A DNA stretch of 64,000 nucleotides, from contig JAJDWI010000112.1 of NCBI GenBank assembly GCA_022825665.1, forward strand, positions 172 to 64,171, written 5' to 3'. The stretch comes from Candidatus Poribacteria bacterium. Lineage in GTDB: Bacteria > Poribacteria > WGA-4E > WGA-3G. Shown in pieces: positions 15,447 to 44,831 of the stretch. A program made the position numbers and the translations under genes. The notes under the pieces are model-generated. The model worked only from the letters and a program-made list of their open reading frames with translations. It had not been told where the DNA came from and did no database searches. Numbering within the stretch: the first letter of the stretch is position 1; every line of letters begins with the position of its first letter.

Positions 15447-16340
15447 ATGCACCAACCCACAGATACCCATCGCACAGCAAAAGACCTATCACCAGAAGAA
15501 CTCAAGGAATACCGTAAACGTCTTGACCAGCACTTTCAAAATCGGAAAGTGGATAAAGCATTGCTGCAGCGCGCGTGGCAAACCGCACACAAGATAGCAG
15601 CCATGCTCTACGAAGATTTCGGTGCTACGAAGGTTGCGATATTTGGTTCGCTTGTGGATAAGGTCCGGTTCACAAAATGGTCGGACATTGATATTGCAGT
15701 CTGGGGAATACCTGCCGATAGATATTTTAGTGCCCTTTGGCAAGCTGAAGAAATTAGTGGATTATTTAAAGTTAACTTAGTTGATTTTGAGAATTGTAAT
15801 AGTCTATTTCGTGAACGAATTCAGAACCAAATTATTTATATTGAACAAGGGAAAATCTATAAAGTGGACAGAATCGGACTTTTTGAGCGTATTTCCGATG
15901 AACGAAAGAAAATCGGAGAAACTGTAGAAAAAATAGGTGCAAGATTAGAAAAGATTAAAACTACTCCCATAGAGTACAGAGAAGAAATAGAGACAACAAT
16001 TGCCAAGAATCTTGTTGATTGTTACCAAGGTATGGAAAGTATTTTTAGACGAATTGCACTTGATGTTGACTTACATATACCTGATGGAAGCAGGTGGCAT
16101 AAAGAATTACTTATGCAAATGGCGGCGCAACAGGATGAACGTCAACCTGTGATTTCACAAGAAACTTTAGAACTACTGCAAGAGTTATTAGAATTTCGAC
16201 ATGTATTTAATCATATCTACGGCGAAGAACTGGTCTACGAAAAAACTGAACAAAATGCCATTAAGATAGAAATGTTGTTTAACAAAATATCAAAAGAACT
16301 TGACGACTTCATAGACTACTTAAAAAATGAAAATGAGTGA
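15447..16340 (+). CDS. fused MNT-type nucleotidyltransferase / HepT-like HEPN protein (paralogue 2, Rx4H intact)
   Basis: NTase motif FGSLVDKVRFTKWSDIDIAVWG. HEPN motif EFRHVFNHIYG (R 16197-16199, H 16212-16214). Collinear with 10873-11814. Confidence 0.7.
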   Translation: MHQPTDTHRTAKDLSPEELKEYRKRLDQHFQNRKVDKALLQRAWQTAHKIAAMLYEDFGATKVAIFGSLVDKVRFTKWSDIDIAVWGIPADRYFSALWQAEEISGLFKVNLVDFENCNSLFRERIQNQIIYIEQGKIYKVDRIGLFERISDERKKIGETVEKIGARLEKIKTTPIEYREEIETTIAKNLVDCYQGMESIFRRIALDVDLHIPDGSRWHKELLMQMAAQQDERQPVISQETLELLQELLEFRHVFNHIYGEELVYEKTEQNAIKIEMLFNKISKELDDFIDYLKNENE

Positions 16341-21639: not shown

Positions 21640-23607
21640 ATGCCTCGCCGCCCAAAAATACGATTCTCTGCTATCCTTGTAGGTCTCTTTTTAGTAGGGG
21701 CTATGTGTGCAATCACCCCCTACAATAACTATTTTTTAGAAAATTCAAGGATAGCAGGAAACCACCTACCTGTCGGTTCAATCTTCGGATTACTACTTCT
21801 TGTCTTCTTAATCAATCTTCCCTTACGTTTTCTCACACGAAACAACCGATTTTCTTTCTCTGCACTTGAATTAACGGTGATCTGGATGATGATCATTGTT
21901 GCTGTCGGTATCCCTTCAATGGGATTGCTGCAGTTTCTGATTCCTTGTCTCGTAGCACTACGTTATTTCACAACCCCTGAAAACGATTGGGCAGAGACAC
22001 TTCAACCCCATATCCCAGAATGGTTAGTGGTAACTGACATACATGCGGTGACAGATTTCTATGAAGGACTATCATCGGGAGGAAACGTGCCTTGGTCACC
22101 TTGGATAAAACCGCTACTTATCTGGGGTCTTTTTGTGTTCGTGTTCTATTTCACGACAATATGTCTTTGCACAATCCTCCGTAAACAGTGGATAGAGCGC
22201 GAACGGTTTTCATTTCCCTTAGTTCAAATTCCAGTACAACTGGCAGCCGAACCTGAACACGGCAACCTTCTCAATGCTTTTTTCAAAAACAAACTGCTGT
22301 GGGTAGGCATGGCACTACCTCTACTCATCCATTTTCTTAACGGCATGCATGCACATTTTCCCAATGTACCGGAAATACCGTTGATATTTAATATTCATCG
22401 TGCTTTTACAGAAAAACCTTGGCATACACTCAGCATGTGGCCCGCTATGAACATTGCTATATACTTCTCTGTTATCGGTGTAGCCGCACTGTTAACACTT
22501 GAAGTATCGTTTAGTCTCTGGTTTTTCTTCCTCTTTTTCAAACTACAATATATAATCATGAATGCAACAGGTTTCGGGATAGGACCTTGGGTAAGTTGTA
22601 GTCGACAGGTAATGGGAGGGTATCTTATATTTGTCCCTGCCATTTTCTGGGGTGGACGTGAACATATCAAATCAATTATTAGGAAAACATTCGGTATGTC
22701 CAGTCAGCAAGTAGATGCTTCAGGCGAAAGACGATTGATAGACGATTCAGATGAACCGATACCGTATCGATTAGCATTACTCGGATTCTTACTTGGGTTT
22801 GTTACACTTGTTGCATTCTTGATGATTGCTGGTATTACAGGATGGGTTGCTGTTGTAACACTTCTCTCAATCTTCATTACCTCTGTTGTATTATCATGGA
22901 TGGTCGTAAACGGTGGATTGTTACTTGTACAAGCACCTTTCTTTCCATCTGACTATATGAACTTTACAGTCGGATCTGCTGCAATGGGACAAAAAAGTCT
23001 TGCTGTTCTCAGTTTTCAGCGGAGTTTTCTACGAGATTGGGGAGAATTTATGATGCCGAATTTCCTACACAGTTTTAAGGCAGCAGATGAAGTCAATCTT
23101 GTCAGACAGCGCATTGTTCCTATACTCAGTGTTTCAATTATCTTCGCCATCCTTGTTTCTGTATACGCATCCTTAACACTGGTTTATGACAAAGGTGCAT
23201 TGTTCTTACAAAGTTGGTCTTATGTGGGTGCTCCACGCGGATATTTTAATCGAATGAATAAAGTTATCCAATTTCCTATTGAAACAAATTGGCTTGAAGT
23301 CTATAGTATGATTGCCGGTGCTGGATTCACAGGCTTTATGTTATGGATGCGTCAGAGTTTTGTCTGGTGGTCCCTACATCCAATAGGATACCTATTAGGT
23401 GCTACCTATCCTGCGTTTCACCTTTGGTCATCTATTTTCTTTGGTTGGATGCTGAAATATATTACACTAAAATTCGGCGGTCCATTGATGTATCGTAGGC
23501 TTCGACCAGTCGCATTCGGATTAATCTTTGGTGAATATGTCATGGTAGGAATCTGGATGGTAGTCGGATTCTTCAGTGGTATAGGCTATCATGCACTACC
23601 GCGTTGA
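21640..23607 (+). CDS. large polytopic membrane protein, uncharacterised family (paralogue of 11821-13764)
   Basis: 655 aa with the same conserved blocks in the same order as the 647-aa protein. Confidence 0.75.
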   Translation: MPRRPKIRFSAILVGLFLVGAMCAITPYNNYFLENSRIAGNHLPVGSIFGLLLLVFLINLPLRFLTRNNRFSFSALELTVIWMMIIVAVGIPSMGLLQFLIPCLVALRYFTTPENDWAETLQPHIPEWLVVTDIHAVTDFYEGLSSGGNVPWSPWIKPLLIWGLFVFVFYFTTICLCTILRKQWIERERFSFPLVQIPVQLAAEPEHGNLLNAFFKNKLLWVGMALPLLIHFLNGMHAHFPNVPEIPLIFNIHRAFTEKPWHTLSMWPAMNIAIYFSVIGVAALLTLEVSFSLWFFFLFFKLQYIIMNATGFGIGPWVSCSRQVMGGYLIFVPAIFWGGREHIKSIIRKTFGMSSQQVDASGERRLIDDSDEPIPYRLALLGFLLGFVTLVAFLMIAGITGWVAVVTLLSIFITSVVLSWMVVNGGLLLVQAPFFPSDYMNFTVGSAAMGQKSLAVLSFQRSFLRDWGEFMMPNFLHSFKAADEVNLVRQRIVPILSVSIIFAILVSVYASLTLVYDKGALFLQSWSYVGAPRGYFNRMNKVIQFPIETNWLEVYSMIAGAGFTGFMLWMRQSFVWWSLHPIGYLLGATYPAFHLWSSIFFGWMLKYITLKFGGPLMYRRLRPVAFGLIFGEYVMVGIWMVVGFFSGIGYHALPR

Positions 23608-28119: not shown

Positions 28120-29856
28120 ATGGAAAATAAAGTACTCGGTTGGGTGAAAGTTGCCGAGTTAAGCGAAGTGCCTGAGGGACAACCGAAGGCAATTAAAATG
28201 GGTGAAGGACGCAGCATTGCCCTCTTTAACGAAGACGGAAAGATATATGCGACTGATAACCAGTGTCCACACATGGGTTACCCGTTGACGCGAGGCACAA
28301 TCCGAAATGGTATCCTCACATGTGATTGGCATAGGCGCAGCTTTGATTTAGAAGGTGGTGGATGTTTCCACGTCGAATGTGATGATCTACGAACGTTTCC
28401 TGTAGATATCAGAGGAGAGGAAATCTGGATTGAACCCGGTGATATGACATACCGCCGTGCCGAAGAACATAAGAAATTGCTCCGAGAAGGTCTTTTAAGC
28501 GAAGACCGTTGGACAATGTCAAAGGCAATTGCGCTGTTGCTTAAAGGTGGTGTCCCAGAAGAAGAGGTAATGGGAGCGATTCTTGAACACGTCGCACGAC
28601 ACATCCCCAGTGCTCACGGGTCAGAAGGTGGGGAGGATGTCTCCAAACTAATAAATGGACTTAGAGTTGGAAGTCGGTATGAAGGTGAAGATAGACTAAT
28701 CGCAGTCACCACCGCTGCATGTTCTGCTGCAGGAGAAGCACGGCAACGTCTTGAGGTAGTTCCCCTACCGGAACCTGTTACGTGGGAAAAGATAAGCCGT
28801 TGGGTTCGTATCTTCTCTTATGAAGGACAAGCTGGTAGAATTGAACGATGTCTGTTCACTGCTTATCATAAAGGCGATGAAGACAAATTACGTCCGTTGT
28901 TGTTTGAATGTGCTGTGGAACCCAATTTTATTGACAATCCACAAATACCGCTTTATGTGAGTTACCTTTCTGAAGTCGTTGATGAATTCGGATGGGACCG
29001 TACAGCTGACTTGTTCTTCTATCTCGGTGCAGACCTTGTAGGACACCATCCAGCAGACCCAGAACGGTATCGTAGAGACGCTATCAATCTTATGAAAGAG
29101 ATGCTACCATCCATTGAAGGTGCCACATTAGAACGCACCAATAAGTTTGATGAAGATGCATTTGTGGAAGCACTTACCAGCGTCAATCTCCAACGTTCCT
29201 TTGAGGAAGTTCAAACTGTCATAGTTGATGGTGTCAAGTTAGACAGAATTATTACAACACTTGTGTTGCTTGCAGCGGATAGGATGGCGAACACACCTGT
29301 TAATGTAGATGCGGGTTGGTGGAACTTAACAATGGAACTTAACCTTGCGTCTTCTCTACGGAGTGCACAGCAAATAGGTGGTAACCTTGTCGCAGCGAAG
29401 GGTTTATTCCATGTTGCATGGCAAATCTTTGCTGACCGATGGATCAATATCACCTCACGACCTCTGAGTGAACCGTTAAGTGCCGAAAAACTTAATGTCG
29501 CTAATGAGGATGAAGGTGTAAAACTAATTATTGGGACAATCGAGTCGCTCAACGTACAAGATGTGGGACCACAAGTGCTTGGATATCTAAATTCTGGTTA
29601 TTCTGGAGAACGTCTTATAAAAGAGATAGGACATTCAGTGCTATGGGATGATACAGGTAGTGAAGTCCTACCAACTTTACGTACTGTATTTGAAGAATGG
29701 AAACATGCTGACGGACATCCAGCACAACCCCAGTTATTAGTTGGATTAGCACGTTACGTTACAGATATCCGATCCAATACCGATAACAAATCTGCTGCTA
29801 CCACTGCAATGAATTTTGCAGAAGGTAGAACAACGATTGAGGTATTTGAGGAATAA
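28120..29856 (+). CDS. Rieske [2Fe-2S] domain protein with ~470-aa unassigned C-terminal domain (paralogue 1)
   Basis: C49-P-H51 ... C68-D-W-H71 (CPHMGYPLTRGTIRNGILTCDWH). The rest of the protein has no motif I recognise. Confidence 0.8.
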   Translation: MENKVLGWVKVAELSEVPEGQPKAIKMGEGRSIALFNEDGKIYATDNQCPHMGYPLTRGTIRNGILTCDWHRRSFDLEGGGCFHVECDDLRTFPVDIRGEEIWIEPGDMTYRRAEEHKKLLREGLLSEDRWTMSKAIALLLKGGVPEEEVMGAILEHVARHIPSAHGSEGGEDVSKLINGLRVGSRYEGEDRLIAVTTAACSAAGEARQRLEVVPLPEPVTWEKISRWVRIFSYEGQAGRIERCLFTAYHKGDEDKLRPLLFECAVEPNFIDNPQIPLYVSYLSEVVDEFGWDRTADLFFYLGADLVGHHPADPERYRRDAINLMKEMLPSIEGATLERTNKFDEDAFVEALTSVNLQRSFEEVQTVIVDGVKLDRIITTLVLLAADRMANTPVNVDAGWWNLTMELNLASSLRSAQQIGGNLVAAKGLFHVAWQIFADRWINITSRPLSEPLSAEKLNVANEDEGVKLIIGTIESLNVQDVGPQVLGYLNSGYSGERLIKEIGHSVLWDDTGSEVLPTLRTVFEEWKHADGHPAQPQLLVGLARYVTDIRSNTDNKSAATTAMNFAEGRTTIEVFEE

Positions 29857-29862
29857 TATCCG

Positions 29863-31143
29863 ATGCCCCAAAACACTTGGCACTTTCCACGCACAGAATA
29901 TATTGAAGCAGTAAATAAAGGCGATGCGAATCAGGTCAAGTCCTTGTTAGCAGATAGCGCGGAACTTCTTGAGTTCATTGATGCACCTTGGTTCGCCTTT
30001 GATTCTCCTGCTGTTGTGTTTGCCGCTTCAATGGTCAATCGTCCACTTGTGCAAGTTCTACTTGATGCAGGAGCGGATATCAATGCCAAGAGTTCTTGGT
30101 GGGCAGGTGGAACCACAGCACTGCAGCACGCAGCAGGTGCGATGCTCGGATACAACAAGGAATTAGCTGAGTATCTAATTGAACGCGGTGCAATTATTGA
30201 CGCACACGCTGCAGCTGGCTTAGATATGCTTGAAACGCTTGAGGATTTGATTCGTGAAGATCCTAAAGTAGTCAACGCACCGGGAAGCGATAGCATGTCC
30301 CCATTACATTTTGCAGCAACTCCCCGCATTGCTGAATTGCTACTAAAACACGGCGCAGACATAAATCTGCGTGACCGTGACCACTGGGGAACTGCTGCAC
30401 AATGGACAATGCGAAGACGACCTGAAGTATGTCGATACCTACTTGACCAAGGTGCAGAAGCGGATGTTGTCCTTTATTGTGTAATGGGTGATGTAGAACG
30501 CGCAAAGCAAGAGTTTCATAAGAATCCTGAACTCCTTAGGTTAAGAATTAATATGAATGCACCTGAAGGCTACATCATACCTCCGTTGAAACCGTCCAAG
30601 TCTAAAAATGAACAGATTAAGCCTGTTCCCGGTGGACATGTATACGTGTATCAGGTTGGACCGACTATGCCGCTACTTGAGATTGCCCTACAAGCCAAAC
30701 AACCAGAAATCGTTGATCTGCTCATTGATTCAGGTTATGAGATCAACTTACGAGACTGGTATATGTTGGTTGGACAAGGACCTAAACGGTTTGATGCATT
30801 ATTAAAAAGTTTTATTGCTAAAGGTCGTGATATCAATGCACTTCAAAAACATAGACGAGGTATGTGGACACCGCTACATTGGGTTGCACAACGCGGGTTA
30901 ACGAATGGCGTTGCCTGTTTATTGAAGAACGGTGCTGACCCGAATGTAACCGATGACAAAGGACAAACCCCTTTACACTTTATTGCTCAAAAAGGCGTTG
31001 GTAAAAACCAAGCGGAGTTACTGATTGAGCACGGTGCAGATGTCAATACACGTGATGATTCAGGACAGACACCGCTTGATTACGCTAAGAAGGCAAAGCG
31101 GAAAACAGTTGCAGATTTTCTGTCAAAATTGGAATTGCGTTAA
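29863..31143 (+). CDS. ankyrin repeat protein
   Basis: Multiple TPLH.A...G....LL..GAD.N units (e.g. SPLHFAATPRIAELLLKHGADINLRD, TPLHWVAQRG, TPLHFIAQKG, TPLDYA). The ATG is 6 nt after the upstream stop. Confidence 0.9.
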   Translation: MPQNTWHFPRTEYIEAVNKGDANQVKSLLADSAELLEFIDAPWFAFDSPAVVFAASMVNRPLVQVLLDAGADINAKSSWWAGGTTALQHAAGAMLGYNKELAEYLIERGAIIDAHAAAGLDMLETLEDLIREDPKVVNAPGSDSMSPLHFAATPRIAELLLKHGADINLRDRDHWGTAAQWTMRRRPEVCRYLLDQGAEADVVLYCVMGDVERAKQEFHKNPELLRLRINMNAPEGYIIPPLKPSKSKNEQIKPVPGGHVYVYQVGPTMPLLEIALQAKQPEIVDLLIDSGYEINLRDWYMLVGQGPKRFDALLKSFIAKGRDINALQKHRRGMWTPLHWVAQRGLTNGVACLLKNGADPNVTDDKGQTPLHFIAQKGVGKNQAELLIEHGADVNTRDDSGQTPLDYAKKAKRKTVADFLSKLELR

Positions 31144-31342
31144 ATAGTGACAACAAAGATGCGATTACGCATCTAACCAGCATCAGTGCAGCAAAAAATA
31201 GAAACCACTGACCCATCAATATAACAGTATGTAGGTTGGAGAGAACAAAGTGAAACCCGACAGATTGAATTGATGAAAACACATGCATCTTCGGTTAGAA
31301 CAAATCGTTTCCTGCCGTTGATGTAAATAGGAGAAGTATATA

Positions 31343-33091
31343 ATGTTATCAGAAAATGGAAATTTCGTTAAAGTCGCTGCCCGCAATGATATAGCAGAAG
31401 GAAAACCAAGGGCAGTTAGAGTTGAAGGGCATAGTATTGCCCTATTTGAACATGAAGGCAATGTTTATGCAACGGATAATCAATGTCCACACATGGGCTA
31501 TCCGCTCATAAGAGGACATGTCAAAAGAGGTGTGTTAGCATGTGACTGGCATGGATGGAGTTATGATATGGAAGGCGGTGGGTGCTTCACCGGTGGTTGT
31601 GATGACCTTGCCACATTTCCTGTTGAAGTCCGAAATGGGGACATCTACATTGATGTTGAAAGTGGTGGAAAAAAACGCGATGACGCACATTTTCTGTTAT
31701 TGAAAGAAGGGCTATTTTCACAAGACAGTTGGACGCTTTCCAAAGCTATTGCCATTATGTTAGCGAAAGGTGTTTCAGAAGACGAAACCTTGGAGATAAT
31801 GGTCAAGCACATGGTGCGGCATATTTCAACCACCCAAGATGCACGAAGCGGTGGTGGACGAATCGCAACACTGATGTACGGAATTAAGGTCGCGCACATG
31901 TATGAGGCTGAAGACAGACTTATTCCGCTGATGATGGCTGCAACGCATGCTGCGGGTAGTCACAATGACCGTCCTGACCGACAACCTTTACCACCACCAG
32001 TTGACTGGGAAAAACTCGAAAATTGGATTAGAGTGTTCACAGCTGATAAAGAGTGGGAAGGTATAGAAAAATGCCTAATCACAGCAAGAGCATTAGGTGG
32101 ACATGAAGATAAATTCATCCCGCTCTTCCTCGATTGTGCATCCCAATGGTTTTTCCTCAGCTACTCCAGAAACCTTATTGACCTTTGTCATCTGGCTGAA
32201 GTGCTTGAGAAATGGGGATGGGAGTTAACCGGAGAATTAGTGTGCAACCTCGGCGCAAAAATACTCGGGCAAGGTAGAGGTAGACCTGGTGAACGTCTCC
32301 GTGAAGCACTCCAAAAACTGGAAGAAATTGAGCATATTTTTGATGATCTGCCACAGGAACAATCACCTGATGTTGACGTCGACTTTGACGAAGATGAATT
32401 ATCCGCAGATCTTGTCAGTGGGGATATAGACACAATATTTGATGCTATCACGAAAGTACTTACAGCAGGCGTTCCCATTGACTCAATTGCTACCACTATG
32501 GTTATGACCGCTGCTGATAGGATGGCAAGAACACCGGTTAACATGAGTCCAGGTTGGTGGGATTTACAAGAAGAGATGGAAATGGCTGCTAACATCAGAA
32601 AACTACTCCGATTTGGCGGCACAAAAATAGCAGCAAAGGCTCTCTACCATTGTGGATGGAGATTTTACTCAAACCGATGGCTAAACATACGACATCAACC
32701 TATTTCAGAGGTGAGAACGACTTCTACCACCAAAGTACTTGATGAAGATATTGCAATTGACGCAATCATTGATGGGATTGAATCTGTCCGCATCCAAGAA
32801 ATCGGACGACGTACCCGAGAATATCTGAACTCAGGCTGCTCTGCTGAACGGTTGATGCGTGAAATGGGACTATGTATTCTCAAGGATGATAGAGGAGACA
32901 ACCTCCTCAGCAGCATCTATATTGTATCTAATGAATGGAAAAGGTGCGAGTCACATCCTGCCAGAAATCAACTGATCGTTGGGTTAGCACGATGGGCAAC
33001 GGATATTCGTAGAAATACTGGAAACGACTCCGCTGTGCAAACGGCACACCGTTTTGCAAAAGGCGAGACCGCTACAGAACTTTATGAATAA
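31343..33091 (+). CDS. Rieske [2Fe-2S] domain protein with ~470-aa unassigned C-terminal domain (paralogue 2)
   Basis: CPHMGYPLIRGHVKRGVLACDWH. Collinear with 28120-29856 along its full length. Confidence 0.8.
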   Translation: MLSENGNFVKVAARNDIAEGKPRAVRVEGHSIALFEHEGNVYATDNQCPHMGYPLIRGHVKRGVLACDWHGWSYDMEGGGCFTGGCDDLATFPVEVRNGDIYIDVESGGKKRDDAHFLLLKEGLFSQDSWTLSKAIAIMLAKGVSEDETLEIMVKHMVRHISTTQDARSGGGRIATLMYGIKVAHMYEAEDRLIPLMMAATHAAGSHNDRPDRQPLPPPVDWEKLENWIRVFTADKEWEGIEKCLITARALGGHEDKFIPLFLDCASQWFFLSYSRNLIDLCHLAEVLEKWGWELTGELVCNLGAKILGQGRGRPGERLREALQKLEEIEHIFDDLPQEQSPDVDVDFDEDELSADLVSGDIDTIFDAITKVLTAGVPIDSIATTMVMTAADRMARTPVNMSPGWWDLQEEMEMAANIRKLLRFGGTKIAAKALYHCGWRFYSNRWLNIRHQPISEVRTTSTTKVLDEDIAIDAIIDGIESVRIQEIGRRTREYLNSGCSAERLMREMGLCILKDDRGDNLLSSIYIVSNEWKRCESHPARNQLIVGLARWATDIRRNTGNDSAVQTAHRFAKGETATELYE

Positions 33092-33102
33092 CACAATTGC
33101 AT

Positions 33103-33150
33103 GAAATGTTGTGCGGGGTCTCTGTGTCCCGCACAACATTTCTTTAGATT
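33103..33150 (+). terminator. strong stem-loop downstream of the Rieske paralogue 2 stop
   Basis: Perfect 15-bp stem: gaaatgttgtgcggg (33103-33117) pairs with cccgcacaacatttc (33128-33142), with a 10-nt loop. It is followed by a short ttt. Confidence 0.6.
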
Positions 33151-33182: not shown

Positions 33183-33332
33183 CCATAAGCGTCAATTTAA
33201 GGAGGAAATGCGTTTGTAGTTACACTTTTCAATGTGCCTCTTACATTATCATTATCGTAGGGGCGAGGTCTCCTCGCCCGTATTCTCATATACAGTCCTG
33301 TAGGTCGGAGAGCAAAGCGACCTACGACATGG
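33183..33332. repeat. left half of the composite repeat (ccataagcgtcaattta, A-variant, B, hairpin module)
   Basis: Collinear with 23669-23815 and 61671-61820. Confidence 0.75.
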
Positions 33333-33370
33333 ATACTAAGCCCGGACAAATGCTATACGGGGAGTATCTT

Positions 33371-34408
33371 ATGAAGATTAATTTATTCTTAATGAAAAAT
33401 ATCCTTCTATCCATCCTATTATGCATATTATGTATGTCAGCACATAGTGCATCATTGGAGTCCGCATTTCAACTTGGCGAAAAGCAGAACCCTCGACTTG
33501 ACAGATTGCTACCTGATGTTGCGCGGTATATGGCTTTTAATAAGAATAGCACAAAGTTGATTGCAGAAGAGATGGGTGGAACGATAGTAGAATGGGATTT
33601 TATATCGCGCAAAAGACGGGAGTTAGGTCACATTCAAGCAAAGCGATTGTTTGTATATTCCAATTCCACCAGTCAACTCTTAATTCAGAAAGAAGATGAT
33701 GTCACTATTCTCAATCTCATAGATGGCAATGAAACACAGATTACAAAGGGACAATATGAAAGTGGGAGTCTTTCAGCTGACAGCACCTTAGCTGTGTTGT
33801 CGAAAGGTGACAAAGAATTCGGGTTTTGGCAAATCACTAAAGACAGTTCAAAGCCAGTGAAGACTTTTCAGACAACTTTACCTGTCAGGAACGGTCTTAC
33901 ACTATCCGATAACGGAAAGTTTATTGCGACTGCTGAAGGAACTTACCGTGATGGTGAAGGACATCGTACAATTATAGAAATTTGGAATGTAAATGATGAA
34001 AAGCAACCTATACGAGTCATAAACACGGGTGAAATTCTTGGTGTGTAGAACCTTGTATTTTCACACGATGGGACAATGCTCGCGGTTGACACACAACTCA
34101 ATGCAAAATCTGGAATTCGCGTATGGGATATAAAGACAGGTGCACATCTACTCAACAAATCCGGTTTTGAGGCATATTGGACACGTGCCCTTACTTTCGC
34201 TCCTAACAATAAATCAAATCCTATAGAATACCTTTTCTCAGGCGACGAGAAAGGTAATTTACGAATATGGAAAATCCCCAGTGGTGAATCTACAATTCAT
34301 GTAAACTATCCAACCGGTATCCAAACGTTAGCCTTCTCACCCAACGGTAAATATTTGGCAGTAGCACTGTGGGACACCACAATTCAAATTTTGAGGTGGA
34401 CAAGATGA
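33371..34408 (+). pseudogene. secreted WD40/beta-propeller repeat protein interrupted by an in-frame TAG (34046-34048)
   Basis: ATG 33371 with RBS ggag, and signal-like MKINLFLMKNILLSILLCILCMSAHS. ORFs 33101-34048 and 34076-34408 share a frame. The WD-like units continue across the stop (...GEILGV*NLVFSHDGTMLAV...IRVWD...LRIWK...LAFSPNGKYLAV). Confidence 0.65.
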
Positions 34409-34911
34409 GTAATAATAATGAATCTTATACTGACGAAAAAGGACGCACCCGGTGGCATATTAACGATGAAATAGCGTTAAGATTTATGGAACTCCATGCC
34501 TTCTTGATTATAGCAGATTATCCCGAAGACCATGCCTCGCGCTATCCACGTTTGGCACATTCCATTTCTCGCTTTCCAGAATCAGTTGCTGATCTCGTGG
34601 AGCAAGATCGGCTAATTGAAGAAATCGGTGGGGTAGGGGATATTGTCGCAACTATCATCACCGAATATCTTCAAACTGGCACCTGTTCAAAAATGGACGA
34701 ATATGCAGGTGACATACCACGATCAATAACTGAACTCGTTCCTGTTCCAGGATTGGGTGGGAAAACTATTAAGCGGCTGTATGAAGATATTGGGATAGAT
34801 AGTCTTGCATCCCTCCGTTCAGCAATTGATGAAGGAAAACTCAAAGGTTTCAAAGGCATTGGAAAGAAAACTCTTGAAAAAATAGAGGAATACCTTGATA
34901 CAAATTTATAA
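34405..34911 (+). CDS. PolX N-terminal-like (8-kDa lyase-like + helix-hairpin-helix) protein, no polymerase domain, paralogue A
   Basis: The ATG overlaps the WD40 stop (atga). GGVGDIVATIITEYLQTG and VPGLGGKTIKRLYEDIGIDSL...GFKGIGKKTLEKI resemble the first ~160 aa of family X polymerases. Confidence 0.65.
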   Translation: MSNNNESYTDEKGRTRWHINDEIALRFMELHAFLIIADYPEDHASRYPRLAHSISRFPESVADLVEQDRLIEEIGGVGDIVATIITEYLQTGTCSKMDEYAGDIPRSITELVPVPGLGGKTIKRLYEDIGIDSLASLRSAIDEGKLKGFKGIGKKTLEKIEEYLDTNL

Positions 34912-34973
34912 TCTGAAGCAATCCTTGATACTCTTCATTTTGAAGAATAAATTAAGGTAAGGATGATGTCAAA

Positions 34974-35456
34974 ATGGAACAAAAAGAACACACAAACAGA
35001 CTAACCAACGATGAAATCGCCCAAAAACTGATGGAACTGCATACAATTCTGATTGTCGCTGATTATCCGGAAGACCACGCAGCACGTTACCCCCGTCTTG
35101 CATATACAATTTCTCGTATGGAAGAATCAGTATCGGACTTAGTTGCTCGAGGAAGATTACAAGACGAGATCCCCGGTGTCGGAGATATAGTCTCAACAAT
35201 CATCACTGAATATGTAGAAACCGGAACATGCTCAAAATTACAAGAATACGCAAGCGATGTCCCGCAGACAATTGTTGAACTCATACCTATTCCCGGACTC
35301 GGTCCAAAGACAATTAAACTTCTATATCAGGAGATAGGTATTGATAGTCTGCAATCACTTCAAAACGCAATTAATGAAGATAAACTAAAAGGGATCAAAG
35401 GTGTCGGAAAGAAAACAATAGAAAAATTTGAAGAATACCTTAATGAAAATTTGTAA
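34974..35456 (+). CDS. PolX N-terminal-like HhH protein, paralogue B
   Basis: 160 aa, about two-thirds identical by eye to 34405-34911 and collinear with it. Confidence 0.65.
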   Translation: MEQKEHTNRLTNDEIAQKLMELHTILIVADYPEDHAARYPRLAYTISRMEESVSDLVARGRLQDEIPGVGDIVSTIITEYVETGTCSKLQEYASDVPQTIVELIPIPGLGPKTIKLLYQEIGIDSLQSLQNAINEDKLKGIKGVGKKTIEKFEEYLNENL

Positions 35457-35483
35457 TTGATATTTTTACATACAGGTGAAATT

Positions 35484-35969
35484 ATGGCAAGTTCACGAGA
35501 TACAGGCGAAATGGTGGATGGCAAAAAGCATGGGTATTGGGTAACTTACTACGCCACTGGTGTAAAGCGAAGTGAAGGCAACTACATTCACGGCAAAAAA
35601 GATGGTCCCTGGATCAATTATCATAAAAATGGAAACAAATCAGGCGAAGCCTCCTTCCGTGATGGAAAATACGAAGGTCCTTGTATCACATATCATGAAA
35701 ACGGTAACCTTAGATCCAGTGGTTCCTATCCTAAACATGAGGGTAAGTCTTATGATGGGAAAAAGGAGGGACCATTTTACAATTACGAAGAAGACGGAGA
35801 AACGGTGTGGCTAATCATAACTTATAAAAAAGGTGGTAGTCGTGCAAAACCCGACGAGTATCCCCTTGGAACATGTGAGGTATGTGGTGAGGTAAGACGT
35901 TTAAATTGGACTGATAGCTGCCCAAAATGTGGTGCAGAAATTGATGAGTCAGAAGTTATTCCCAATTAA
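35484..35969 (+). CDS. MORN-repeat-variant (YwqK-like) protein with C-terminal CxxC...CxxC zinc ribbon, paralogue A
   Basis: GKKHGYW.TYY..G.K.SEGNYIHGKKDGPW repeats, then CEVCG...CPKCG. ATG 35484 with RBS aggtga is preferred over the track start at 35457. Confidence 0.7.
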   Translation: MASSRDTGEMVDGKKHGYWVTYYATGVKRSEGNYIHGKKDGPWINYHKNGNKSGEASFRDGKYEGPCITYHENGNLRSSGSYPKHEGKSYDGKKEGPFYNYEEDGETVWLIITYKKGGSRAKPDEYPLGTCEVCGEVRRLNWTDSCPKCGAEIDESEVIPN

Positions 35970-35981
35970 CAGATTTATCTT

Positions 35982-36117
35982 ATACCATTTCTAAATAATA
36001 ACTTTTCATTAACAAAGAACGCGTTTGTAGTCGCGCAATTCATTGTGCCTCTTACACTAACGTAGGAGCGAGGTCGCCTCGCTCGTGCAAACAAGATAAT
36101 TCAGGTTAATTTGGTAT
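35982..36117 (+). repeat. MITE variant between the two MORN paralogues
   Basis: ataccatttctaaataataacttttcattaacaaa + module A + module B + gtgcaaacaagataattcaggttaatttggtat. The right end also occurs at 61190-61225. Confidence 0.75.
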
Positions 36118-36131
36118 TATGAGGTGAAATT

Positions 36132-36596
36132 ATGGCAAGTGCAAGAGATACAGGTGAAATGGTCGATGGTAAAAAACATGGGTACTGGATTACCTATTTT
36201 GCCAACGGATTAAAACGTAGCGAAGGAAACTTCATCCACGGCAAAAAAGACGGAAAATGGATCCTCTATCACAAGAATGGGAATATATCCAGCGTAGCAT
36301 ATTTCCGGGATAATAAGTACGAGGGCGATTATATATGCTATCATGAAAATGGGAATCGCAAATGGGGTGGTCCCTACAAGAAACATGATGGCACATCTTC
36401 CGACGGGAGAAAAGAGGGAGTTTGGCACTGTTGGGAAGAGGACGGCGAGACGATATGGCGTATTATCACCTATAAAAAAGGCGGTGCCCGCGCAAAACCA
36501 GACGAACATCCTTTCGGTGAATGCCACGGTTGCGGCGAAGGTAGACGCTCAACGTGGACAGATAATTGCCCAAGGTGTGGCGAACCACTTAACTAA
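36132..36596 (+). CDS. MORN-repeat-variant protein with C-terminal zinc ribbon, paralogue B
   Basis: 154 aa, collinear with 35484-35969 including the RBS context (aggtgaaattatggcaagt). Ends with CHGCG...CPRCG. Confidence 0.7.
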   Translation: MASARDTGEMVDGKKHGYWITYFANGLKRSEGNFIHGKKDGKWILYHKNGNISSVAYFRDNKYEGDYICYHENGNRKWGGPYKKHDGTSSDGRKEGVWHCWEEDGETIWRIITYKKGGARAKPDEHPFGECHGCGEGRRSTWTDNCPRCGEPLN

Positions 36597-36776
36597 TACC
36601 ATTTCTAAATAATAACTTCTCATTTACAAAAAACGCGTTTGTAGTCGCGCAATTCACGCGCCTCTTACATTCTCGTAGGGGTGAGGTCGCCTCGCCCGCA
36701 TTCTCACATATAGTCCTGTAGGTCGAAACAAACTTGCAACCTACAACATGCTTGTCTAAACCAAGATTTTCAGGAT
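36596..36776 (+). repeat. MITE left half plus A, B, hairpin and D modules
   Basis: It starts on the last base of the TAA stop codon (36594-36596) of the upstream gene. Collinear with 23690-23841. Confidence 0.75.
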
Positions 36777-43217: not shown

Positions 43218-44831
43218 TTATTCTTCGGGCATTTCTGCTTCCGTTGTAAGATAATAATACCCGACGATTATGCACATCTCGTCTTCCGATGTAAATCCAA
43301 ACTCAATCGGCACATCGCGATCGTAATTGTTATGGGTGCACTGAAAACTAAGTCCATCGGTCGCATTGAGCATCAGCGGTGGGTTATAGAACGTGATAGG
43401 TGCGTTATCATAAACGATACTTCTGTGAAGCAATTCATTTGTTGACATCCGCGTAATTTCAAACAACTCACCATGTCTATGCATGTGAGATGTCAGCGTA
43501 ATTATATTCAAGACGGCATCCGAAGGGGCACCGCGTAGGTGAAGTTCATCTTCAACATACCAGTCCATTTTCGTAACACGGGTGAGACCCGGTGGAATGT
43601 TAATATCCGTGTTGGAAACGAAAATCTCTATCGCTTCATGCTTGACTTCTTCAGGCGGTAGTGTGTAAATATTTATATAGGCCTCACCGATGAGTGGTTC
43701 TGTGCCCAATAAGTTGATATAGTGAGAATTCAAGTCGAACAGCGTGTCGCCAGGGAGACGCAGCGCAACACCTTCAGGGAATTGAAAGGAGAAATCCTCA
43801 GTTTGTGTCCCGGCAACAAAGAACCGATGAGACCCCAGATTTCCGAGTGCTTGCGGATCAGCTGGATCAAGTTCACGAAAAACGTGGTTCGGGTCAACGC
43901 CTATTCCCGGTGTGACACCCGCCTGGAGAATGCCTTCTGTTATCGCTGTATCAGTGAGCCTGTATAAGATAAAGTGATGACTGCCTGTCGGGTAGAATAT
44001 CTCGTATCCGTTGATGAATATATCGCCTTCTATCAGATTGCCATTTTCATCACGAATCTGTGTTGCATAAAAGACCTCGCGTTCGGTGCCCGGTTCAATT
44101 GTGTAAGGCGGTAAATGCAACTGATAACCCTGTCCAAGTGGCGGTGCTGACGGTGGCACAAATGTTTCTTCGGGATCTCGTAGTACACCAAGATCACTAA
44201 CGTCTTCTATTTTGCCTGTCTGTGGTGCACCGGCAGTAATCCATTTCCGAATAGCATCTATTTTGCCGGCATGAAGCACGCCACTACCAAATGGCATTCT
44301 TGCTCCATGTTCTTGTGCTATGGGGGCAATCAACTTCGTCAACAAGAAACTATTTTCAGGATTGCCCGGATCAACAAGTTTCATACCCGAAGCCAATGCC
44401 GCCCGGTTCTCTGGTGCTTGTCCAATCAGTTCCTCATAGGAAGATGTATAGGTGAGGTTCAAACCAGCAACATTTCTTGGTGCCGCATGGCATGCACTAT
44501 TCACACAGCTTTTGTCAAAAATATACTCTTGAATAGCGTGATAAGTAGAATGCTCATCTGGCACTGTTTCTCCAAAACGATTACTGACACGAACAAGATC
44601 AAGGATATTGATAACACCATCGCGATTGACATCAGGGTCATGTAAAACCGAGCGATCTCGCGGCTGTCCAAAAGCAGCAGCGACAAGCACTAAGTCTTGA
44701 ATATTTACCACACCGTCTTTGTTCACATCCTCTAACAAGGTCGGGGAATCGCTGTGTCCAAACACAGTAGAAGATACAGACACCATAAGCACAAGAAACA
44801 GAAACAAGCATACTATTTTTTTTAACGTCAT
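43218..44831 (-). CDS. secreted protein: two dockerin-like repeats + PSCyt-like segment + copper type II ascorbate-dependent monooxygenase-like C-terminal domain
   Basis: Signal peptide. DVNKDGVVNIQDLVLVAAAFG and DVNRDGVINILDLVRVSNRFG. FDKSCVNSACH...PENSFLLTKL...IRKWITAGAP. C-terminal SHMHRHG, CTHNNYD and SEDEMCIIVGYYY. Confidence 0.65.
   Translation of the reverse strand: MTLKKIVCLFLFLVLMVSVSSTVFGHSDSPTLLEDVNKDGVVNIQDLVLVAAAFGQPRDRSVLHDPDVNRDGVINILDLVRVSNRFGETVPDEHSTYHAIQEYIFDKSCVNSACHAAPRNVAGLNLTYTSSYEELIGQAPENRAALASGMKLVDPGNPENSFLLTKLIAPIAQEHGARMPFGSGVLHAGKIDAIRKWITAGAPQTGKIEDVSDLGVLRDPEETFVPPSAPPLGQGYQLHLPPYTIEPGTEREVFYATQIRDENGNLIEGDIFINGYEIFYPTGSHHFILYRLTDTAITEGILQAGVTPGIGVDPNHVFRELDPADPQALGNLGSHRFFVAGTQTEDFSFQFPEGVALRLPGDTLFDLNSHYINLLGTEPLIGEAYINIYTLPPEEVKHEAIEIFVSNTDINIPPGLTRVTKMDWYVEDELHLRGAPSDAVLNIITLTSHMHRHGELFEITRMSTNELLHRSIVYDNAPITFYNPPLMLNATDGLSFQCTHNNYDRDVPIEFGFTSEDEMCIIVGYYYLTTEAEMPEE

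Follow-up and report, generated by a model that had tools for sequence, protein, structure and literature searches.

A conserved tandem pair of Rieske fusion proteins with an undescribed, predicted all-alpha domain, accompanied in Poribacteria by an ankyrin-repeat gene

We analysed a stretch of 64,000 nucleotides (nt) from a Candidatus Poribacteria bacterium (contig JAJDWI010000112.1 of assembly GCA_022825665.1, positions 172 to 64,171; hereafter the window) that carries two paralogous genes, A and B, and between them a gene for an ankyrin-repeat protein (Ank). Each paralogue begins with a Rieske domain and continues into a C-terminal domain of about 470 amino acids (aa), which we call X. X and its fusion to a Rieske domain have not been described before, and there is neither a Pfam model nor a solved structure; nothing about the Rieske part itself is out of the ordinary. 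We tentatively propose, at a probability of roughly 0.4, that A, Ank, and B form a heteromeric oxidoreductase or oxygenase of the cytoplasm that depends on its Rieske domains, with X as a new catalytic domain and Ank as an adaptor.

Pairwise alignment of A and B runs from end to end, with 42% identity and 64% similarity over 576 aligned residues (E = 2e-166). The first-pass annotation of this DNA had put the identity at about 40% by eye; the paralogy covers the full length and lies far beyond chance. The shared blocks that it had listed, AADRMA(N/R)TPVN, GWW(N/D)L, YLNSG(Y/C)S(G/A)ERL, and LVGLAR(Y/W).TDIR.NT, are all visible in the alignment. Both N-termini match the Pfam Rieske family (PF00355, residues ~8–94) with 70.8 bits for A and 71.1 bits for B against a cutoff of 20.3. 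The Rieske ligand motif CPH-x16-CDWH, noted earlier at both N-termini, is complete in sequence, in the Pfam match, and in an alignment of 37 homologues, where all four ligand columns are invariant and every invariant residue is retained in both A and B.

In the AlphaFold2 (AF2) model of A, the Rieske part superposes in Foldseek on 5bok, 2i7f, and 1fqt (template modelling (TM) score, TMt, 0.80–0.87; root-mean-square deviation (rmsd) ~2 Å). The full-length model matches only Rieske ferredoxins and the Rieske parts of oxygenases, including 5bok with a TMt of 0.87. By sequence and fold, the nearest Rieske relatives are the BphF, NDO, carbazole, and T4moC ferredoxins, with E-values reaching 1.7e-11 and TMt reaching 0.87. 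Because these oxygenase ferredoxins are the closest relatives, and because the loop disulfide cysteines of the high-potential bc1/b6f Rieske proteins are absent from A and B, both Rieske domains are predicted to be of the low-potential ferredoxin type. Ferredoxin-type Rieske domains feed electrons to the metal sites of non-heme-iron or diiron oxygenases.

More familiar identities for the two proteins were considered and set aside. NirD was rejected on a TIGR02378 score of 49.7 bits against a cutoff of 74.65, with no NirB or Pyr_redox gene within ~14 kb. A canonical Rieske oxygenase alpha subunit was rejected on the lack of any Pfam match past residue ~105 and on the all-alpha C-terminal domain; the matches to oxygenase alpha subunits, both in the PDB sequence search and in Foldseek, cover the Rieske part alone. 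A stand-alone Rieske ferredoxin was excluded on domain content and scores. As the first-pass annotation had remarked, the usual Rieske partners are not nearby: no oxygenase catalytic domain, cytochrome b, NirB, or ferredoxin reductase is encoded within ~14 kb on either side. The neighbours include an enolase-superfamily protein, SHMT, a GFO/IDH/MocA oxidoreductase, a class V aminotransferase, a sulfatase, ADH, and similar genes.

The region beyond the Rieske domain, which the same annotation could not place, stays without a family assignment in Pfam, NCBIfam, and PDB sequence searches. For residues ~110–578 of both proteins, Pfam and NCBIfam give no match even when E-values up to 10 are admitted, and X has no sequence relative of known function. 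PDB searches with A alone, with an A/B-clade profile, and with a superfamily profile returned Rieske matches only and nothing in X. With Foldseek included, the region matches no well-characterised family that has a known Rieske fusion. The AF2 model of full-length A (predicted local distance difference test score (pLDDT) 85.5, predicted TM score (pTM) 0.80) shows a Rieske beta domain followed by 22 helices, and X modelled alone is likewise a compact, all-alpha domain of 22 helices (pLDDT 85.4, pTM 0.87). Searching a viral structure library with X retrieved uncharacterised giant-virus proteins only.

When X alone was compared with the PDB in Foldseek, nearly all matches were noise (TM 0.08–0.15, rmsd > 17 Å). 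The sole non-noise match among those listed, all others having a TM of at most 0.15, is the hydroquinone dioxygenase PaD (8z4r), aligned over the whole length with a probability of 0.82, TM 0.41/0.42, rmsd 10.4 Å, and E 0.46. PaD belongs, together with BTG13 and GedK, to the DUF4243 family of all-alpha non-heme-iron dioxygenases (PMC11371914; PMC12173810), and its iron site consists of H63, H166, H317, H394, and the carboxylated K397 (PMC11371914). Within the A/B clade, H117, H157, and H533 are invariant among the 37 aligned homologues, and H161, H431, and K427 are conserved in at least 90%; this His/Lys set is roughly collinear with the PaD residues. At a TM below 0.5, a fold relationship between X and DUF4243 may be taken as a weak lead and not as a result. 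A full-text literature search found no paper connecting Rieske proteins with DUF4243.

Other assignments of X were tried and rejected. A diiron (T4MO-like) hydroxylase was considered because T4moC is a Rieske ferredoxin and the alpha and beta subunits are paralogous; A and B contain no conserved E/DxxH pairs, and the Foldseek matches listed from the PDB include no such fold. Haem c was rejected on the absence of a CxxCH motif, and a TPR/HEAT-like solenoid on Foldseek TM scores of ~0.12 to such proteins and on the compact model with its pTM of 0.87. An internal duplication of X is unsupported: aligning its halves and quarters with hhalign gave a weak hint for residues ~121–179 against ~348–408 (E 0.0086, probability 4.7%). 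As a separate observation, the A orthologue P0075 (L083:7548–9575) carries about six tandem repeats of 8–9 aa (…PFDVERAAS…) inserted in an X loop. This loop corresponds to the poorly conserved A residues ~445–462 and, judging from P0075, appears to tolerate large insertions.

The family to which X belongs is large. An exhaustive search with X alone retrieved 195 clusters at the 50% identity level. Most family members are Rieske-X proteins of ~550–600 aa; Rieske-less X proteins of ~420–460 aa are also present. With a profile of the largest distant clade, at least 8000 clusters (90% level) were retrieved; they stem from Chloroflexota, Thermomicrobia, Deinococcus, and Latescibacteria, and their names go no further than "Rieske (2Fe-2S) protein" or "nitrite reductase/ring-hydroxylating ferredoxin subunit." Profile–profile comparison links this clade to the A/B clade with a probability of 99.95% (E 1e-38, 458 columns). 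X is an autonomous domain of a large multi-phylum superfamily. Ligand-type residues switch between its clades, as exemplified by E406 of the A/B clade, which aligns with the His of the LHTFT motif of the distant clade. A full-text literature search returned no description of the Rieske-X family in the Poribacteria papers that mention Rieske.

X genes of the distant clades are single, and their contexts are variable. Rare fusions join Rieske-X to an adenylate/guanylate cyclase (twice, P0343 and P0447), an ECF sigma factor to Rieske-X (P0364), and X to WD40 repeats (P0377). In L089:6001–13380, a stand-alone X gene lies beside genes for a WD40 protein, an ECF-type sigma-70 factor, and a Ser/Thr-kinase–WD40 protein, and the gene for P0278 lies downstream of genes for a histidine kinase, a response regulator, and a Ser/Thr kinase. 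ECF sigma/anti-sigma genes also occur beside the A-B pair in loci L003, L004, and L005. The fusions and the L089 context hint at a signalling role in some clades.

Conservation of the two paralogues as a pair was examined in 87 related loci classified by tblastn. B lies downstream of A at every locus where the contig extends far enough, and the pair is present in Poribacteria, Acidobacteriota, Latescibacteria, and other lineages. Among loci without Ank, the gap between A and B measures 72–142 nt in L001–L003 and L086 and up to 775 nt in L087. In the closest relative, L008 (JAJEAG010000055.1), A, Ank, and B are 96–98% identical to the genes of the window, and B orthologues overall are 59–98% identical. 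Between phyla, orthologues share about 63% identity for A and about 60% for B, compared with 42% between A and B. Because between-phyla orthologues are so much closer to each other than A is to B, the duplication is old and the pair is the conserved unit, as one would expect if strong purifying selection had long held together two obligate subunits of one module. Searching for a conserved metabolic neighbour found none; PhyH, DAO, and HpaB genes occur only sporadically. In two Acidobacteriota loci, and confined to them, a gene for a 225-aa alpha/beta-hydrolase of the Abhydrolase_11 family lies directly upstream of A on the same strand (L086:5302–5976; L087:6673–7347) and may be a lineage-specific partner of the pair.

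The protein encoded between the paralogues had been recognised from its sequence as an ankyrin-repeat protein of 426 aa, and Pfam agrees (Ank_2, 143.5 bits in four stretches; Ank, 122.5 bits; both above the Pfam threshold). Its gene is conserved beside the paralogues in relatives: it adjoins A in 78 of the 87 loci, deep-branching Poribacteria included, at 52–96% protein identity (85% in L007, 73% in L006, and 52–58% in deep-branching A-Ank-B genomes). The bracketing of the ankyrin gene by the two paralogues, proposed from the window alone, holds for part of the loci: 55 show the order A-Ank-B, 20 have Ank upstream of A (Ank-A-B), three show A-Ank at a contig end, and nine carry A-B without Ank. 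The last group includes Acidobacteriota, Latescibacteria, and other lineages, and the ankyrin gene is a Poribacteria-level addition to the A-B pair. ANK genes are few in Poribacteria, with 14 genes on three single-cell genomes (PMC3909097), so the linkage to A and B is not an artefact of gene density.

The spacing between A and Ank is tight as well as recurrent, with the Ank ATG following the A stop codon after 6 nt in 41 of the 44 measurable A-Ank junctions of related genomes. The Ank-B spacer ranges in relatives from 13 to about 1300 nt and sometimes holds extra genes; in L007 a second Ank gene occupies it. In two other lineages where A and B are apart, different genes fill the slot between them. 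L083:9908–11257 encodes a 449-aa protein that reads by eye as a GNAT-like domain with C-terminal ankyrin repeats; here an ankyrin-repeat gene has come to lie between the paralogues independently. L081:10624–11424 encodes a 266-aa FGE-sulfatase-like protein in that slot. The Ank N-terminus has no hydrophobic signal (maximum 15-mer hydropathy 1.56 versus 2.43 in the signal peptide of the neighbouring WD40 protein), a measure that covers N-terminal signal peptides and leaves other secretion routes possible.

The open reading frame (ORF) list places the three genes on one strand at the positions first described, and the sequence bears out the distance of 6 nt from the A stop to the Ank start (Table 1). 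The junction sequence suggests translational coupling of A to Ank. A terminator scan found a terminator-like hairpin starting 12 nt past the B stop, which is likely the end of an A-Ank-B transcription unit. Because of the 6-nt junction, the GAGGA within A, and the hairpin after B, the three genes look like one transcription unit. A promoter scan stayed within shuffled expectation (19 found versus 22.9 expected), and no promoter is claimed.

Table 1. Features of the A-Ank-B locus (window coordinates; SD, Shine–Dalgarno)
Feature	Position	Strand	Remarks
Gene A, Rieske-X fusion, 578 aa	28120..29856	+	ORF
A Rieske domain	residues ~8–105, nt ~28141–28434	+	ligands C49, H51, C68, H71
A all-alpha X domain	residues ~114–577, nt ~28459–29850	+	AF2 model, 22 helices
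A/Ank junction	29848..29862	+	SD-like GAGGA 29848–29852 within last A codons
A stop codon TAA	29854–29856	+	exactly 6 nt before Ank ATG (29863)
Ank, ankyrin-repeat protein, 426 aa	29863..31143	+	Pfam Ank_2, Ank
Ank-B spacer, 199 nt	31144..31342	+	SD-like AGGAG at 31329–31333
Gene B, Rieske-X paralogue, 582 aa	31343..33091	+	ligands C48, H50, C67, H70
Intrinsic-terminator-like hairpin	33103..33142	+	17-bp stem, 8 GC pairs, T-rich tail

We favour an oxidoreductase, within this reading probably an oxygenase-like one, because the Rieske domains are of the ferredoxin type, the paralogue pair is conserved, X is compact and conserved, and the fold lead points to an iron dioxygenase. On the observed gene anatomy and conservation, we infer the following arrangement. 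The low-potential N-terminal [2Fe-2S] clusters of A and B would take electrons from an unlinked, generic reductase and hand them to a metal or active site in the all-alpha X domain. In the A/B clade this catalytic site would perhaps be His-rich, formed by H117, H157, H161, H431, and H533 together with E242, E406, and K427. A and B would be paralogous subunits of one heteromer, and Ank would bind them as a Poribacteria-specific intracellular adaptor or assembly subunit, as AnkB does for KatB. That X is a redox catalytic domain not recognised before, perhaps a very remote structural relative of DUF4243, wired to the fused Rieske domain and served by a dedicated Ank subunit, we regard as unlikely when all these elements are taken together.

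Several results weigh against the oxidoreductase reading. Neither A-B nor the distant-clade genes are consistently linked to a reductase or any other pathway gene. The PaD match falls under the usual same-fold threshold (TM 0.41, rmsd 10.4 Å, E 0.46), and BTG13, the second DUF4243 enzyme with a solved structure, does not appear among the 50 Foldseek matches listed. In hmmscan, the DUF4243 model PF14027 was never matched at E <= 10 by A, B, or 56 other superfamily members, and the A/B-clade and superfamily profiles recovered neither 8Z4x nor 7Y3W among PDB sequences. The His set of the A/B clade is not kept throughout the superfamily, most of whose clades have Arg in place of K427; what is conserved superfamily-wide is an Arg/Trp-rich set comprising E242-R243, R388, W400, R/K427, R440, N443, D511, and R545. 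Finally, distant clades carry signalling-type fusions.

These fusions lend themselves to the main rival explanation, which we consider possible though doubtful, in which Rieske-X is a redox-sensing signalling module: the Rieske domain would report the redox, O2, or NO state and X would transduce it, without catalysis, to protein partners such as repeat proteins (Ank, WD40), sigma factors, and cyclases. The cyclase, ECF sigma, and WD40 fusions in distant clades fit this explanation, as do the kinase, regulator, sigma, or WD40 genes in the contexts of L089, P0278, and L003–L005, and so does the Poribacteria A-B pair, which is flanked by repeat-protein genes (Ank, WD40) and has no conserved metabolic partner. 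However, the fusions are a handful among at least 8000 clusters, nearly all of which are plain Rieske-X proteins of ~580–600 aa, and these phyla are very rich in WD40, ECF sigma, and kinase genes, so that neighbours of these kinds have a high background; WD40 is described as "highly abundant" (PMC3909097). Moreover, the local WD40 gene encodes a signal peptide and lies past the terminator; a stop codon breaks it, and the closest relative lacks it. For a sensor, the ~60–64% identity that A and B retain between phyla is high, and a full-text literature search found no report of a Rieske sensor domain. A clearly less probable alternative is that the proteins are non-catalytic, each a large Rieske ferredoxin whose X domain docks to an unlinked enzyme or complex, so that the conserved Arg/Trp residues form an interaction or structural surface. 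This electron carrier or scaffold would account for the superfamily-wide invariance of Arg, Trp, Asp, and Glu in place of classic metal ligands, for the ferredoxin-type Rieske domain, and for the lack of a cofactor motif in A and B (no conserved E/DxxH pair, no CxxCH). A highly conserved, compact domain of 470 aa is nevertheless a large investment for docking; Rieske-less X proteins imply that X has a function of its own, and a tandem paralogue pair kept across phyla suggests a self-contained machine.

A further question concerns the ankyrin component only. The gene might be unrelated to A and B, namely a eukaryote-like host-interaction gene that sits in a permissive slot and is carried along by linkage, in keeping with the host-directed action generally proposed for sponge-symbiont ankyrin proteins (PMC3909097). 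Its absence from the A-B pair outside Poribacteria, its flipped position in the 20 Ank-A-B loci, and an Ank-B spacer that varies from 13 to about 1300 nt and holds other genes (L007, L083, L081) are all compatible with such a passenger. Still, the gene adjoins A in 78 of 87 loci, also where Ank identity has fallen to 52% and where the gene order has been rearranged, and keeps its 6-nt stop-to-start spacing in 41 of 44 junctions. It encodes no signal peptide, ANK genes are few per Poribacteria genome, and the unrelated lineage L083 has independently placed an ankyrin-repeat gene in the same slot. On this evidence, an unrelated ankyrin gene seems rather improbable to us, and we retain Ank as a candidate subunit of the proposed oxidoreductase.

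Downstream of B lies a gene for a WD40 beta-propeller protein with a signal-peptide-like N-terminus (33332–34408). It is split by an in-frame stop codon at 34046–34048 (…EILGV*NLVFSHDG…), reflecting either a pseudogene or a sequencing error; the gene is wholly missing in the 98%-identical L008 and retained in most other Poribacteria. It is followed by a tandem duplication of HhH-domain genes (34369–34911 and 34974–35456) and one of MORN-repeat genes (35457–35969 and 36132–36596). In this region (34369–36650), the minus strand carries two identical copies of a hairpin, GCGCGACTACAAACGCGT, at 36036–36019 and 36650–36633, and the copy number of the HhH/MORN module differs among related genomes. 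The WD40-HhH-MORN genes are syntenic in Poribacteria. They are probably not part of the A-Ank-B unit, because a terminator lies between, the WD40 protein has a signal peptide, its gene carries an in-frame stop, and it is missing in the closest relative.

Elsewhere in the window, 43218–44831 on the minus strand encodes a 537-aa protein that combines a dockerin type I domain with the C-terminal domain of a copper type II ascorbate-dependent monooxygenase, a pairing that is unusual for a bacterium. A nucleotidyltransferase (Polbeta)–HepT-like fusion at 15447–16340 looks like a fused toxin–antitoxin-type module. Finally, a 655-aa DUF6785/DUF6784 protein is encoded at 21640–23607, and its gene recurs upstream of the cassette in L007.

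As electron-transfer modules, Rieske centres have been studied in depth, and few fusion partners of theirs are known; Rieske-X accounts for thousands of sequence clusters in Chloroflexota, Deinococcota, Acidobacteriota, Latescibacteria, and Poribacteria, all named merely "Rieske (2Fe-2S) protein." Work on X would show what a large block of "known unknowns" does and might bring to light new chemistry of metalloenzymes or of redox sensing. Were X to prove catalytic, A and B would found a class of Rieske oxygenases with a new architecture, widespread among bacteria. Were Ank to prove a dedicated subunit, at least one "eukaryote-like" symbiont ankyrin would serve bacterial metabolism and not host manipulation. 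In the coupled, signal-less Ank, the idea that a symbiont "eukaryote-like protein" acts inside the bacterial cell can be put to the test, and such a role bears on how the enrichment of ankyrin genes in sponge symbionts is interpreted.

Among known systems, the Rieske ferredoxins of oxygenases (BphF, NDO ferredoxin, CarAc, and T4moC) resemble the N-terminal ~105 residues of A and B most closely (E 1.7e-11 to 1e-7, TMt 0.75–0.87, rmsd ~2 Å), with shared CxH...CxxH ligands and no high-potential loop disulfide. Those ferredoxins, however, are stand-alone proteins of ~105–115 aa encoded with an oxygenase and a reductase, whereas the Rieske domains of A and B are fused to a 470-aa domain, and their second ligand box reads C-D-W-H in place of C-P-x-H. 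The alpha subunits of Rieske oxygenases (NDO, carbazole dioxygenase, and dicamba monooxygenase) share the overall plan of an N-terminal Rieske domain followed by a larger domain in one chain, and their matches to A are weak and limited to the Rieske part. Their catalytic domain adopts an alpha/beta helix-grip fold with a 2-His-1-carboxylate iron. In contrast, the C-terminal domain of A and B is all-alpha, with no Pfam catalytic match and no fold match.

The DUF4243 dioxygenases (PF14027; structures for comparison PDB 8Z4Q/R/S and 7Y3W) are closer in size and helix content, X having ~470 aa and 22 helices and PaD 465 aa and 22 helices (PMC11371914), both all-alpha. They differ in lacking a Rieske domain and in needing no electron donor for the cleavage step (PMC12173810); they show no sequence or profile similarity to X, the TM lies below 0.5, and the His/Lys set is not superfamily-wide. 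For the ankyrin gene, the nearest counterpart is the katB-ankB operon of Pseudomonas and Myxococcus, in which an ankyrin-repeat gene shares an operon with a redox metalloenzyme; AnkB is reported to be co-transcribed with the catalase KatB and required for catalase activity (PMC12754779, citing Howell et al. 2000). An ankyrin gene between redox paralogues, which the first-pass annotation called unusual for bacteria, is indeed an unusual feature, and this precedent makes the statement somewhat overstated. AnkB is small and periplasmic with a haem catalase as its partner, whereas Ank has 426 aa, bears no signal peptide, and is encoded beside two Rieske fusions.

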